The notes under the pieces are model-generated. The model saw only the letters and a list, made by a program, of their open reading frames with translations, was not told the origin of the DNA and did not search any database. 28,069 nucleotides of DNA from a virus (lineage: Duplodnaviria; Heunggongvirae; Uroviricota; Caudoviricetes), in the IMG/VR virus record IMGVR_UViG_2874920711_000005; one strand, 5' to 3'. The translations under genes and the position numbers were made by a program. Shown here one piece after another: positions 13,320 to 18,111 of this stretch (position 1 is its first letter; the number at the start of each line of letters is the position of its first letter).

Positions 13320-13475
13320 TTACTTCCTGGATTCGTAGTCTACGAAGACAGCGACCTCCGTCTGGCCGGTTCGGATTCGTACCTCACAGAGGTCTTTCCT
13401 CGTTACCAGTGCCGTCACTATGACGGTTAAACAGATGACGATCAGGGCGATTAACATCGCCTTTTGCTGCTTCAT
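13320..13475 (-). CDS. hok: Hok-family type I toxin (51 aa); the upstream regulatory region probably carries mok/sok elements (not resolved)
   Basis: MKQQKAMLIALIVICLTVIVTALVTRKDLCEVRIRTGQTEVAVF... is near-identical to HokD/Hok; GC-rich hairpins plus terminator-like structure downstream (13197..13311). Confidence 0.85.
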   Translation of the reverse strand: MKQQKAMLIALIVICLTVIVTALVTRKDLCEVRIRTGQTEVAVFVDYESRK

Positions 13476-13702
13476 AGCCTGCTTCTCCTTGCCTTTCGGC
13501 ATGTAAGAGGCTAACCTACATGTGCAAAGCATGAAATTGGCCTCAGATTAATGTTAAGCGTCTTGCCGGACGCGTAATGTTAACTGGGGCTTTTCTCTAT
13601 CTGCCTTTTGGTGTTCATGCCTGAAGCAGATAGCCTCAAGCACCCGCAGTCATTCTACTTACCTCGCCAATATGAAATCAATCAGAAAGGTGCCCCATAA
13701 AA

Positions 13703-14389
13703 TCACTCCTTCTCTTCTTTACCGTAGTGGAGTTGACCAATTTTGATAAGAGGGCGTCCCTGAGATTTGCGGTGTAGATTGGTATCGCGCAGAGAATACA
13801 CACAGCCACAATATTCCTGCTGATAGAATTTTTCGCGCTTGCTGATTTCAATCATACGGGACGAGCCGCCCTGCTTGCGCCAGTTATAATCCCAGTACAC
13901 CATGCCCGGATAATGCGCGACGGCTCGCCGCCCACAGTCGTTAACCTGCTGCATATTTTTCCAGCGTGAAATGCCCAGTGAACTGCTGATCACACTGAAA
14001 CCATTTTCAGCGGCGTACAGCGCTGTCCGCTCAAAACGCATGTCAAAACACATGGTGCAACGGATCCCTCGTTCGGGCTCCCATTCCATTCCTTTGGCTC
14101 GTTCAAACCAGTTGTCTGTGTCGTAATCAGCATCAATAAACGGCACGCCGTGTTGTTCAGCAAAGCGAATATTCTCATCCTTACGAATTAAATACTCTTT
14201 CTGAGGATGAATGTTCGGGTTGTAGAAAAAGATGGTGTAGTCGATTCCCGAGGCCTGAAGCGCCTCCATCACCTCACCGGAACATGGAGCACAGCAAGAG
14301 TGCAGTAGTAGTTTGTTTGCCCCGTTTGGGAGCTCCAATTTGGGCCGTTTGAAATCAGCAACTGTCATAAATATGTTTATTGGGGTCAT
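13703..14389 (-). CDS. queH: QueH-like epoxyqueuosine reductase (DUF208 family)
   Basis: Conserved Cys motifs [29 protein letters not shown] and overall resemblance to Thermotoga-type QueH. Confidence 0.75.
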
Positions 14390-15387: not shown

Positions 15388-16134
15388 CTACTTAACAACC
15401 CTCGAATGGCTAACATTCGGACGCCAGCTCTCCCAGTTAAAATTCACCCAGCGCCCGCCGTTCATGACCATGCGATCCATCACCCGCTCGCCGAGCAATG
15501 TTTTCATCACCTCATAGTTCAGGTTTGTCAGCATCCCCACGCTGCGCATCGACGCTGTCCGGCGATCAACAATCTGGTGCAGCACCACCTGCTCGTTTTT
15601 CGTCTCGCGCTGAATGCCAATTTCATCAAGAACCAGCAGATCCACTTCGCACAGCTCCCGCAAAAATTTTTCGCCTGACTGCCCGTCGTCATAGCTGGCG
15701 TGCAGGGCGCTCATAACATCAGCCACGGTAACCACAATCACTGTCTGACCGTCTTTCAGCAGGCGATTCCCGATAGCTGCCGCTAAGTGATTCTTCCCGG
15801 TACCAGGTTTTCCGCTGAACGCAAAATTTGTACACCCGGTCATCAGTTCATCGGCGATGGATTTCGCCTGGCTTAACGCGTATCGCTGGCCGTCGTTCTG
15901 CACCTGGTAATTCGCAAACGAGCATTTACGGTGCAACGGCTGGATGCCTGAGCGATTCAGAATTTTTTCCACCCGCAACTGGCGATTCAGGCGGTTGATC
16001 TCCTCGCTACGTTTCTGGCCTTCAGCAAGTTGCCACTCGCGCCACTCCGCTACCGTTCTGAATGGGGCGGTTACATGTGGCGGGGTCAGTCGGCGGATGC
16101 GTTCCAGAACGCCGCCTGTCGCAATATTTTTCAT
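15388..16134 (-). CDS. DnaC-like helicase loader (IstB-type AAA+ ATPase; Rac YdaV-like)
   Basis: Walker A FSGKPGTGKNHLAAAIG, Walker B DLLVLDEIG; follows the replication initiator with a 4-bp overlap. Confidence 0.85.
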   Translation of the reverse strand: MKNIATGGVLERIRRLTPPHVTAPFRTVAEWREWQLAEGQKRSEEINRLNRQLRVEKILNRSGIQPLHRKCSFANYQVQNDGQRYALSQAKSIADELMTGCTNFAFSGKPGTGKNHLAAAIGNRLLKDGQTVIVVTVADVMSALHASYDDGQSGEKFLRELCEVDLLVLDEIGIQRETKNEQVVLHQIVDRRTASMRSVGMLTNLNYEVMKTLLGERVMDRMVMNGGRWVNFNWESWRPNVSHSRVVK

Positions 16135-16916
16135 GGTCCGTTACCCCTGAAGCCTGGCGGGATCGCACTGTCCGGCAACGAGACGGTGTTAACCTGTCGG
16201 AGCAACGTCTCAGGCCGAACACCTTTCGGCGCGAACAGGCCCTGGTATTCATTGGCGATGCTGTGTCGAATCACCTGCTCAGGTGTAAAACCCTGCTGAC
16301 GGAATTTTTCCAGTTCCCGTATCGCCCCGTTAGCGCCCTGCTCCGTTCGAATCGGTTTTCGCAATGCCTGTCTGAACCGGACCCACTCATGCCAGAGTGT
16401 TTCCGGCAACCAATCGGGCAGCTCAATAGCCTCCGGCTCGAATTTTTTAGACGCTCGTTTTTGGCGAGGGGGATTTAGGGGGAGATCAGTATTTAGATCT
16501 TCCTCTGGTAACGCTTTTTGATCCGTTTGTGTAACGCTGGCAGCGTTACCTTTTCGTTTCAGTTCGCGTATTTTTGTTACTCGCTCGTTTGTAACCGCCC
16601 GTTTTTTAGAGCTTTTTCCGTTATGACGTTCAAAGTTAGGTAGAGAAAGCCCACCGTCATTTTCGACCAGCCATCCAACCTGAATTAACGCATCAGCAAA
16701 ACCAGACATAAAAGTGATGCGATCTATTGCACTTTTTGTAACGCCGCGAGCGTTACAATCTGCATTACCGTCTATCATTTGTTGATCCGCCCATGCCCAG
16801 AAGCGAATAACCTTCCCTAATGCGGCATCTGGATCAATATTCAGAATCTCAGCAAGCCTGAATATTTCCGGCTTATCCGGCGTAATAACCTCGAGCTTTA
16901 TCCAGTTTGAAGCCAT
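16131..16916 (-). CDS. Replication initiation/replisome organiser protein (Rac YdaU-like)
   Basis: 261-aa ORF upstream of the DnaC-like gene; contains palindromic iteron-like repeats; AAGGTGA SD. Confidence 0.6.
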   Translation of the reverse strand: MASNWIKLEVITPDKPEIFRLAEILNIDPDAALGKVIRFWAWADQQMIDGNADCNARGVTKSAIDRITFMSGFADALIQVGWLVENDGGLSLPNFERHNGKSSKKRAVTNERVTKIRELKRKGNAASVTQTDQKALPEEDLNTDLPLNPPRQKRASKKFEPEAIELPDWLPETLWHEWVRFRQALRKPIRTEQGANGAIRELEKFRQQGFTPEQVIRHSIANEYQGLFAPKGVRPETLLRQVNTVSLPDSAIPPGFRGNGP

Positions 16917-16949
16917 TTGTTTTCACCTTGTAACGCTCGCAGCGTTACA
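16531..16949. repeat. Three copies of palindrome TGTAACGC-N(1-5)-GCGTTACA (16531..16549, 16737..16757, 16929..16949) plus half-sites: candidate origin iterons/operator
   Basis: 7-mer GTAACGC or its complement occurs at least 7 times within 450 bp; one copy sits 12 nt upstream of the initiator start codon. Confidence 0.55.
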
Positions 16950-16993
16950 TTTAACTGATACCGAACAAAACAATCCGGCACGATTAATTTCAA

Positions 16994-17416
16994 TCAATGC
17001 ACTACGACAGAATCGCCGGGCGACCCACCACCGCTGAAATGTGCTTTCCGGTAAACGGCCTGGACAGCATCATCATGCGCATCAATTGCCGTACTCAACG
17101 CTTCCTGCGCCGCCAGTAATGCACGGCGTTCCAGGGTATCGAAGATACAGAGTCGGTGACGCAGCTCACGCGGAAGAATTGCCAGAACCGCAGGGATCAG
17201 TTTCTGAATTTTTTCCCTTTGCGCTTTCGTTTCACCTTTCAACCAACGGTGATAGATATTCTGCTGATTGTTCCAGTCCTTGCCTGGTACCAGAGACAAT
17301 TCGCCGCCCCCCTGCCGCAGATATTCTTCAGTAATTGCGTTAGCGACCCACGCCTGCCCTTTTTCGGCTGCCAGGGCTAACAGCACTGATTCGATGTGCT
17401 CATGCCTGATTTTCAT
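16994..17416 (-). CDS. YdaT-like protein (Rac immunity region homolog)
   Basis: MKIRHEHIESVLLALAAEKGQAWVANAITEEYLRQGGGELSLVPGKDWNNQQNIYHRWLKG... resembles Rac YdaT from memory. Confidence 0.6.
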   Translation of the reverse strand: MKIRHEHIESVLLALAAEKGQAWVANAITEEYLRQGGGELSLVPGKDWNNQQNIYHRWLKGETKAQREKIQKLIPAVLAILPRELRHRLCIFDTLERRALLAAQEALSTAIDAHDDAVQAVYRKAHFSGGGSPGDSVVVH

Positions 17417-17627
17417 GAATCACCTTCCCAGGTCGTTTTGCCTTACGATATTCGTCATAAACTTTGGGGTCGTACTGAAGTTCCCCGCCAGATGCCTCTT
17501 GCAGGCGCATCGCGCGACCTTCAGGAACCAGTTCCCCCCATGCAGCAATGCTTGCCAGCCTAACTCCTGCGGCATTGGCAAGCTTTGTTTTGCTGCCAAA
17601 AAACGCTATAGCATCAATTTTCAACAT
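17400..17627 (-). CDS. Cro-like HTH regulator (Rac YdaS-like)
   Basis: 75-aa ORF divergent from the repressor; strong SD TAAGGAG; HTH ...AIAFFGSKTKLANAAGVRLASIAAW... Confidence 0.65.
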   Translation of the reverse strand: MLKIDAIAFFGSKTKLANAAGVRLASIAAWGELVPEGRAMRLQEASGGELQYDPKVYDEYRKAKRPGKVIHENQA

Positions 17628-17703
17628 ATCGAGCTCCTTAGATTTTCCTAAGGAAACCAGATCGTAGAGAAACCTAAGTCAAGAAAAATTAGAATTCCCT
17701 AAT
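17628..17703. promoter_or_regulatory. Divergent promoter/operator region between Cro-like and repressor genes with ACCTAAG-type sites (palindrome TTCCTAAGGAA at 17645..17655; ACCTAAGT at 17672..17679)
   Basis: Perfect 11-bp palindrome and related half-site in the 76-bp intergenic region; the same motif recurs at 18186 and 18221. Confidence 0.5.
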
Positions 17704-18111
17704 ATGAAAAACGAAACCTTCGGTGCTCGCCTCTTACATAGGCGTAAAAAATTAAAACTGTCTCAGGCCGCATTAGGTAAGCTGGTCAAAGTGGCTCACG
17801 TAACAATTTCTCAATGGGAAAGAGATGAAACACAGCCGGCGGGGAAAAGATTATTCGCACTGAGCCAAGCGCTTCAGTGCTCACCGACTTGGCTTCTTTT
17901 TGGGGATGAAGATAAACAACCAGGCGAACCGATCCCGGATAATCAGCCAGCCATTCTGACAGAAGATCAAAAAGAGTTACTTCAACTGTTCGACGCACTG
18001 CCTGAGTCAGAGCAAAAGGCCCTGTTGTCAGAGATGCGTGCTCGAGTTGAAAATTTCAACAAACTTTTTGAAGAACTACTCAAAGCTCGCAAAAGAAGCG
18101 CAAACAAATAA
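17704..18111 (+). CDS. Prophage repressor, XRE-family HTH (RacR-like)
   Basis: ...KLKLSQAALGKLVKVAHVTISQWERDETQPAGKRLFALSQALQCSPTWLLFGDEDKQP... resembles RacR. Confidence 0.8.
   Translation: MKNETFGARLLHRRKKLKLSQAALGKLVKVAHVTISQWERDETQPAGKRLFALSQALQCSPTWLLFGDEDKQPGEPIPDNQPAILTEDQKELLQLFDALPESEQKALLSEMRARVENFNKLFEELLKARKRSANK

Follow-up and report, generated by a model that had tools for sequence, protein, structure and literature searches.

A stretch of viral DNA of 28,069 nucleotides (Caudoviricetes; IMG/VR record IMGVR_UViG_2874920711_000005), which we call the window throughout, carries three palindromes of the form GTAACGC-N5-GCGTTAC. One lies just upstream of a replication initiator gene and two lie inside it. 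We propose, with a probability of roughly 0.65, that these dyads (P1, P2 and P3, in the direction of the gene) are binding sites of the initiator's own winged-helix N-terminal domain (N-domain), and that together they form the replication origin of a Rac-type prophage. A first-pass annotation of this DNA had noticed the palindromes and suggested that they mark the prophage origin and/or autoregulatory operators. The analysis presented here supports that suggestion; both origin function and initiator binding are what we infer from comparative sequence evidence.

The dyads in the window

The initiator gene, the dyads and the smaller features around them are the following (coordinates are those of the window).

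16131-16916, minus strand: initiator gene, 261 amino acids, intact
16930-16948: P1, dyad GTAACGCTCGCAGCGTTAC, within a 21-bp perfect palindrome at 16929-16949; intergenic, between ydaT and the initiator gene
16738-16756: P2, dyad GTAACGCCGCGAGCGTTAC; codons 54-60 (CNARGVT), in the region coding for the N-domain
16531-16549: P3, dyad GTAACGCTGGCAGCGTTAC; codons 123-129 (GNAASVT), in the linker-coding region
16762-16768: degenerate half-site GTAATGC (gene strand), 12 bp before P2, within an enterobacterial four-codon insert (NADC)
16508-16514: extra exact half-site GCGTTAC (gene strand), 23 bp past the right arm of P3 in the gene direction
16576-16595: two partial half-sites of 5 bp, GTTAC at 16576 and GTAAC at 16591, between P3 and P2
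16498-16507, minus strand: residual polypurine tract CAGAGGAAGA, shortened from the (GAGAA)n/(GAGGAA)n tract of relatives
16484-16523: three GATC (Dam) sites within 40 bp, adjoining P3 and the residual purine tract

Three exact copies of GTAACGC-N5-GCGTTAC are present where 0.07 are expected. The 28 kb hold no further match at two or fewer mismatches, and none of 100 shuffled sequences reached three dyads. The heptamer GTAACGC itself occurs 10 times against 2.57 expected, with seven of the ten inside 441 bp (16508-16948); the lone copies at 3204, 6736 and 14580 are at chance level. The sequence TGTAACGC is found in seven copies, with 0.73 expected. These figures bear out most of what the first-pass annotation had described, namely three near-identical palindromes (they are exact) about 200 bp apart (207 and 192 bp, start to start), two of them within the initiator coding sequence, and seven occurrences of a 7-mer in 450 bp; the motif enrichment statistics that it had called for are those given above. 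It had further placed one copy over the promoter and ribosome-binding site of the initiator gene. The second half of that statement stands, as P1 adjoins the AAGGTG ribosome-binding site, 12 nt before the ATG. The first half has no support: a consensus scan of 16100-17750 detected no sigma-70-like promoter.

The 5-bp partial half-sites between P3 and P2 are weak and could be there by chance. The GATC triple spans 36 bp and is the tightest in the window, where the next spans 73 bp; over the whole window GATC is scarcer than expected (85 against 113). A role for P3 as a terminator was considered and rejected, the sole terminator-like match being P3 itself on the antisense strand, at a level not above shuffled sequences.

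The initiator and its N-terminal module

The 261-residue product matches phrog_2509 ('replication initiation protein', 1e-84) in the PHROG database, and its C-terminal half matches phrog_678 ('replication initiation O-like', 2.8e-25). From the PHROG match and the DnaC-like, lambda-P-like or DnaB-like genes downstream, we assign it as a predicted replication initiator. In the window, a DnaC-like helicase-loader gene (15388-16134) directly follows it, as in lambda-type origins.

In the predicted structure, the N-module (amino acids 1-137) is modelled as a winged helix, with a helix-turn-helix followed by a beta-hairpin wing, and then a basic helix. The modelled N-domain belongs to the fold class of winged-helix DNA-binding domains. 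It extends to about residue 122, the C-domain begins at about residue 138, and P3 lies between the two, so that the initiator's own gene carries repeats in its inter-domain linker. Sequence searches of Pfam, NCBIfam and the PDB assigned the N-domain to no family, and none of 21 family members had any Pfam match at E<=1.

DNA nearly identical to that of the window is found in E. coli chromosomes and in records named 'Escherichia phage Rac'. The initiator is a mosaic with respect to K-12-type Rac: its C-terminal 121 residues (138-258) share 83% identity with the DUF1376-type YdaU, to which residues 1-137 have no relation, and the junction is near 16505. The ydaS-ydaT-ydaU-ydaV gene order, and the position of this gene before ydaV, are common to the window and the YdaU-type loci. 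The DUF1376 domain of the K-12-type protein (8.7e-26; encoded at 2542-3399 of our locus L005) is absent from the window protein; some near-identical genes carry the RefSeq/NCBI name 'YdaU family' despite this absence.

The two N-domain types come with different repeats. Where the window has GTAACGC dyads, the DUF1376-type gene has five or six copies of (C/G)AGATGTTCAA, mostly as direct repeats (L005 2941-3012, 3160-3171 and 3245-3256). These too are embedded in the N-terminal half and linker of the gene, three or four of them in the linker-coding region. Rac has been reported to have an active origin, oriJ; the K-12-type YdaU is its presumed initiator, and the (C/G)AGATGTTCAA repeats are candidate iterons of this classical Rac origin. 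Repeat type thus tracks N-domain type, as expected of an initiator and its origin.

Other phages have one half of the gene in common with the window. In TL-2011b, Klebsiella ST11-OXA245phi3.2 and Enterobacter BUCT554 it is only the N-terminal half, with a DNA identity of about 68%; P2 and P3 are retained there at homologous positions, their arms unchanged and their centres variable. In vB_EcoS-683R6 it is only the C-terminal half, and this phage carries no such palindrome. Two genes nearly identical to the window's, from Shigella flexneri and E. coli (L006 and L007; gene start 2501), are truncated at 210 codons with all three dyads kept, which suggests decay of the protein in some cryptic prophages.

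Conservation of the sites across phyla

A protein-anchored scan, with one genome taken per species, yielded 72 loci (68 of them non-redundant) from Enterobacterales, Pseudomonas, Burkholderiales, Planctomycetes, Verrucomicrobia (including Akkermansia) and others. Nearly all 72 carry both intragenic dyads, at about +148/+160 and at +337 to +391, and the pair recurs in five or more bacterial lineages. Across the 68 loci, 257 of 402 GTAACG/CGTTAC matches fall within +100 to +450 of the gene, against a background elsewhere of about 0.43 per kb. The first-pass annotation had named two observations that would speak against its proposal, a similar density of the palindrome elsewhere in the genome and a lack of conservation in homologous replication modules. 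Neither was seen; the matches concentrate in the gene, and the sites are strongly conserved across phyla.

The association also holds when the search begins from DNA. A scan of viral contigs for nothing but two dyads 189-219 bp apart returned at least 120 loci, and among the matches listed all 120 overlap an open reading frame that encodes the N-domain, with the dyads at the canonical offsets. An equivalent of P1, at -32 to -44, is present only in some Enterobacterales (L006-L009, L011 and L013) in the protein-anchored set, and in 30 of the 120 viral loci among the matches listed.

This distribution bears on the possibility that the sites are autoregulatory operators and nothing more, at which the initiator or another repressor blocks transcription or translation, perhaps by looping, with the origin located elsewhere. 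Operators typically have dyad symmetry, P1 lies against the ribosome-binding site, and spacings of 192 and 207 bp permit looping. However, P1 is missing in most lineages and it is the intragenic pair that is conserved, no promoter-like sequence was found in 16100-17750, and the sites travel with the N-module in mosaics, as lambda-type origins do. Most relatives also have a purine tract and 12-bp-period arrays of half-sites beside P3 (see below), for which an operator has no need. We therefore consider an operator-only role unlikely. An operator role for P1 is not exclusive of an origin role for the element, and it is part of the best explanation.

Some features of the layout vary among relatives. 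Strict helical phasing of P2 and P3 is not supported, as their spacings form an almost unbroken series between 189 and 231 bp. In Serratia and Pantoea relatives an exact GTAACG is found both at +148 and at +160, which identifies the four-residue insert NADC as the duplication of a 12-bp half-site. In a Verrucomicrobia clade (L044-L068) the site layout is different: the left arm of P2 is degenerate, a GTAACGC half-site is found at -57 to -69, and partial sites lie at about +526 and about +708.

Selection on the DNA of the sites

Codon usage and reading frame indicate that P1-P3 are under selection as nucleic acid and not as peptide. When the excess of a single synonymous codon is measured against the usage of each gene, P2 codons take the first five places in synonymous constraint among 112 aligned codon columns; kinship of the homologues inflates the z-scores of codon constraint, and it is the ranking that we take as evidence. 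At P2, Gly50 is encoded by GGT in 45 of 58 cases, Asn55 by AAC in 56 of 56, Ser58 by AGC in 34 of 34, and Val59 by GTT in 55 and GTG in six. GTG occurs in exactly those six genomes that have CAC (His) at position 55, so that where one arm has changed non-synonymously the other shows a synonymous counterpart. P3 is located in a hypervariable linker, where identical DNA appears in three reading frames relative to P2 (25, 12 and 4 genomes).

These results dispose of the idea that a repeated peptide, N-A-x-x-V-T, gave rise to the pattern secondarily, or that the repeat arose by chance, and we regard it as refuted. In the window, P2 and P3 do share a frame and both encode x-N-A-x-x-V-T, and Asn55, Ala56, Val59 and Thr60 are nearly invariant in the family. 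Yet P1 encodes no protein, the frame of P3 differs among genomes (all three are used), synonymous positions are fixed, genomes with His55 have GTG in place of the synonymous GTT in the opposite arm, and chance would supply 0.07 dyads. Gly50 and the four residues just named (within residues 50-60; window 16737-16757) are nearly invariant and fall in a loop of the structural model that has low confidence (predicted local distance difference test, pLDDT, about 60). It may be the DNA site, and not a function of the protein, that keeps these residues conserved.

The arms and the centre of the dyads behave very differently. The AACG/CGTT core is invariant at P2 and P3 in 48 genomes, and the 5-bp centre carries almost no information. 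Only two arm variants recur, GTCACGC..GCGTGAC and CTAACGC..GCGTTAG; both are symmetric, and each is found at P2 and P3 of one genome together. Position 3 is A/A in 42 genomes and C/C in five, and a mixed A/C site occurs in none. Akkermansia has an asymmetric CCGTTAC arm that is the same at both sites. Such concerted variation of P2 and P3 argues for a shared trans-acting reader. At P3, positions 7 and 13 do not pair in 20 of 48 genomes, and positions 1 and 19 are G-G in six of 48. Many relatives carry extra half-sites without partners, in steps of 11-12 bp and in a >>>><<< pattern around P3, and in some there are five to seven half-sites at a 12-bp period around P3. Taken together, these features fit a dimeric binder of double-stranded DNA that is able to extend along the DNA.

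The palindromes could instead work as hairpins, either as stem-loops in mRNA that affect translation or processing, or in single-stranded DNA as signals for priming or primosome assembly. Every site folds to a stem of 8-10 bp, P2 and P3 in their contexts exceed shuffled sequences in stability (z -3.5 and -4.0), the two arms of the variants remain complementary, and some relatives have a DnaT-like C-domain. What makes a hairpin function quite improbable in our assessment is that the stem sequence is invariant across phyla and the loop is free, which is the opposite of an element that acts by structure only or is read in its loop. Moreover, most departures break pairing rather than compensate for it (7/13 and 1/19 at P3; the Akkermansia CCGTTAC arm), the extra half-sites, spaced in steps of 11-12 bp, lack an arm to pair with, P2 and P3 vary in concert, and P1 in its context does not exceed shuffled sequences in stability (z -0.8). 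A search of Rfam gave no family over the sites at E<=1.

The probable reader of the sites

The N-domain is the sole component common to the loci across phyla. Upstream genes are unrelated from locus to locus (methylases, ParB-like genes, an antirepressor), and the downstream genes encode DnaB-type helicases, a lambda-P-type loader or a DnaC-type loader. By these comparisons, the sites are specific to the N-domain family and co-vary with the N-domain. Five of 124 protein columns separate proteins with GTAAC-type sites from those with GTCAC-type sites. Residue 113, in the basic helix, is Val in 36 of 37 GTAAC-type proteins and Lys or Gln in all six of the GTCAC-type. One GTCAC-type protein (L037) is 60-66% identical to GTAAC-type proteins and 39-49% identical to the others of its own type, which implies that the switch from GTAAC to GTCAC was made in two lineages, each with a change of Val113 to Lys or Gln. 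With two events only, the association between residue 113 and the site code is suggestive.

Could another protein be the reader? Candidates include YdaT, a prophage protein such as DUF977, or a host transcription factor. YdaT, the product of the gene directly upstream, is a DNA-binding regulator that has sites in the Rac locus, and a sequence one mismatch away from its box lies 32 bp from P1. Like the dyads, the YdaT box is an inverted repeat in the same prophage module. However, the box footprinted in Rac and CP-933P, (A/T)TGATT-N6-AATCAA, is unrelated to GTAACGC-N5-GCGTTAC and has a known, different binder; its TGATT-N6-AATCA core is located at the ydaT start. An exact copy, TGATTTTCATGAATCA, is present at 17407-17422, over the ydaT start codon, as published for Rac. 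YdaT was thus rejected as the binder of P1-P3: its footprinted box differs and occurs elsewhere in the window. TL-2011b-type phages and non-enterobacterial loci keep the dyads with neither ydaT nor DUF977 as a neighbour, and the range of hosts, from E. coli to Akkermansia and Planctomycetes, makes a shared host factor unlikely. Overall, we think it very unlikely that a protein other than the initiator reads the sites.

The one-mismatch box, CGATTAATTTCAATCA, lies at 16981-16996, over the ydaT stop codon, and might mark a YdaT-controlled promoter at the junction of ydaT and the initiator gene. At one or fewer mismatches, the window contains four matches to the YdaT box, with 1.35 expected.

A candidate origin

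The surroundings of P3 point to the initiator-bound origin proposed above. In 37 of 45 genomes, the most purine-rich 24-mer on either strand of the approximately 5.8-kb locus lies on the sense strand 0-60 nt after P3; the window is not among these 37. The tract comes straight after the last half-site, with the sequence C(A/T)AGAGAAGAGAAGAGAAGA and, in 15 genomes, 24 of 24 purines; the (GAGAA)n tract of relatives is 20-35 nt long. In relatives, the counterpart of the half-site at 16508-16514 immediately precedes the purine tract, at a distance of 11-12 or 23-25 bp from P3. In the window the tract has contracted to CAGAGGAAGA, and local AT content is only 55-58%. We consider the residual purine tract a candidate unwinding element.

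Two circular phage-like episomes carry the complete element. They were the only 'plasmids' found and are not decisive for use of the element as a plasmid replicon, an idea that we set aside. The Pusillimonas sp. T7-7 'plasmid' (L280, 41 kb; 2390-3163) has an array of five half-sites around P3, followed by a 30-nt (GAGAA)n.

In the mechanism that we propose, a dimer of the N-domain would bind the dyads as double-stranded DNA in and just before its own gene. P3, the flanking half-site and the purine tract would constitute the origin core, at which the initiator oligomerises and the DNA opens, and the C-terminal domain would bring in the DnaC-like loader from the neighbouring gene. P2, about 200 bp upstream, and P1 would be auxiliary sites that contribute to a larger nucleoprotein complex or a DNA loop. 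P1, at the ribosome-binding site, may also damp expression of the initiator gene. Embedding of the sites in the N-module would keep specificity and target together through recombination of phage modules.

Some caveats attach to this proposal. The dyads are about 200 bp apart, in contrast to the tight array of four iterons in lambda; the sites do not form a tandem array of at least four iterons about 20 bp apart, but three dyads 192/207 bp apart and one exact extra half-site. There is no evidence of a promoter at P1. Lastly, the window lacks a long purine or AT-rich tract beside P3, a point in favour of sites that serve as operators only.

A more ambitious reading, to which we assign somewhat less than even odds, is that the element belongs to an ancient, undescribed module in which a winged helix with no Pfam family reads GTAACG in Proteobacteria, Planctomycetes and Verrucomicrobia. 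An origin within the initiator's own coding sequence would then dictate Gly50, Asn55, Ala56, Val59 and Thr60 and the linkers GNAxxVT and EEKRRE, (GAGAA)n would be a new type of unwinding element, and residue 113 would set base 3 of the half-site. Literature searches with YdaU, YdaV, oriJ, DUF1376 and motif strings returned no description of the element, and no reports of initiator binding to the repeats or of replication from such a fragment; the motif-string matches were to incidental primers.

Relation to known origins

The first-pass annotation had likened the sites to the lambda ori iterons inside O. The likeness is one of layout; it does not extend to homology. The lambda record shows four iterons with dyad symmetry midway through O and, after them on the sense strand, ACAAAAGAAAAAAGAAAAGA. 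The iterons and the adjacent tract make up the lambda origin, and extra iterons lengthen O. In lambda, as in the Shiga toxin (Stx) phages P27 and 933W, repeats with dyad symmetry occupy the inter-domain segment of the initiator gene, a purine-rich tract follows them on the sense strand, and the next gene encodes a helicase loader. The family described here has this layout too, with the purine tract present in most relatives and contracted in the window. The number of repeats alters protein length in both systems: two additional iterons in Stx O add 13 amino acids, and a 12-bp half-site here adds four. In both, N-module and sites are exchanged between phages as a unit.

There are also differences. 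No homology between the N-domain and lambda O was detectable: hhalign gave a probability of 0.1% and BLASTP an E of 0.7, and there was no match to Pfam Phage_rep_O. Lambda has its own iteron sequence, whereas the half-site of the window is GTAACGC, and its four 18-bp iterons fit in 85 bp, whereas here two or three dyads are about 200 bp apart, one of them within the coding region of the DNA-binding domain and one upstream of the gene. The lambda tract is A-rich AT sequence; that of the present family is a G/A pentamer repeat, (GAGAA)n. The comparisons support a view of the element as a putative initiator-embedded origin that has an unrelated initiator domain and a different site code and geometry, and that is conserved across phyla.

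Winged-helix initiators that bind repeats are familiar from iteron plasmids, among them RepE of F, RepA of pPS10 and pi of R6K. In these systems an inverted pair of half-sites at the start of rep is the operator of the dimer, and direct repeats are the origin sites of the monomer. The present family is similar in that dyads, including P1 at the gene start, occur beside same-orientation arrays of half-sites with a 12-bp period in relatives. Unlike the plasmid systems, its sites are intragenic and belong to a phage module with a helicase loader rather than to a plasmid replicon, and there is no sequence match and no specific structural match between the two.

If confirmed, the element would give a sequence-defined replication origin to a large unannotated family of prophage initiators that spans Rac-type prophages of E. 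coli and Shigella, the Stx-associated TL-2011b, Klebsiella and Enterobacter phages, and prophages of Akkermansia and Planctomycetes. Paired GTAACGC dyads about 200 bp apart with a purine tract would locate such origins without protein annotation. The system would also be an unusually clear case of a cis-element that constrains its own reader protein, and GTAAC with Val113 versus GTCAC with Lys or Gln113 would offer a natural specificity switch for the study of initiator-origin co-evolution. Practical uses would include phage-derived replicons and the reading of prophage mosaicism.

Neighbouring genes

The early module at 15388-18111 is of Rac type. Around the initiator gene it contains the following genes.

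17704-18111, plus strand: cI-like repressor gene
17400-17627, minus strand: Cro/DicC-like gene
16994-17416, minus strand: YdaT/CII-like gene
15388-16134, minus strand: YdaV/DnaC-like helicase-loader gene, overlapping the initiator stop codon

Just past the repressor side of the immunity region, a gene at 18961-20160 (plus strand) encodes a DDE_3 transposase of insertion-sequence type, 399 amino acids long, with N-terminal helix-turn-helix domains. Downstream of the replication module lie a QueH epoxyqueuosine reductase gene (13703-14389, minus strand; 2e-65) and an open reading frame for a Hok/Gef-family toxin (13320-13532, minus strand; Pfam, 1e-22).

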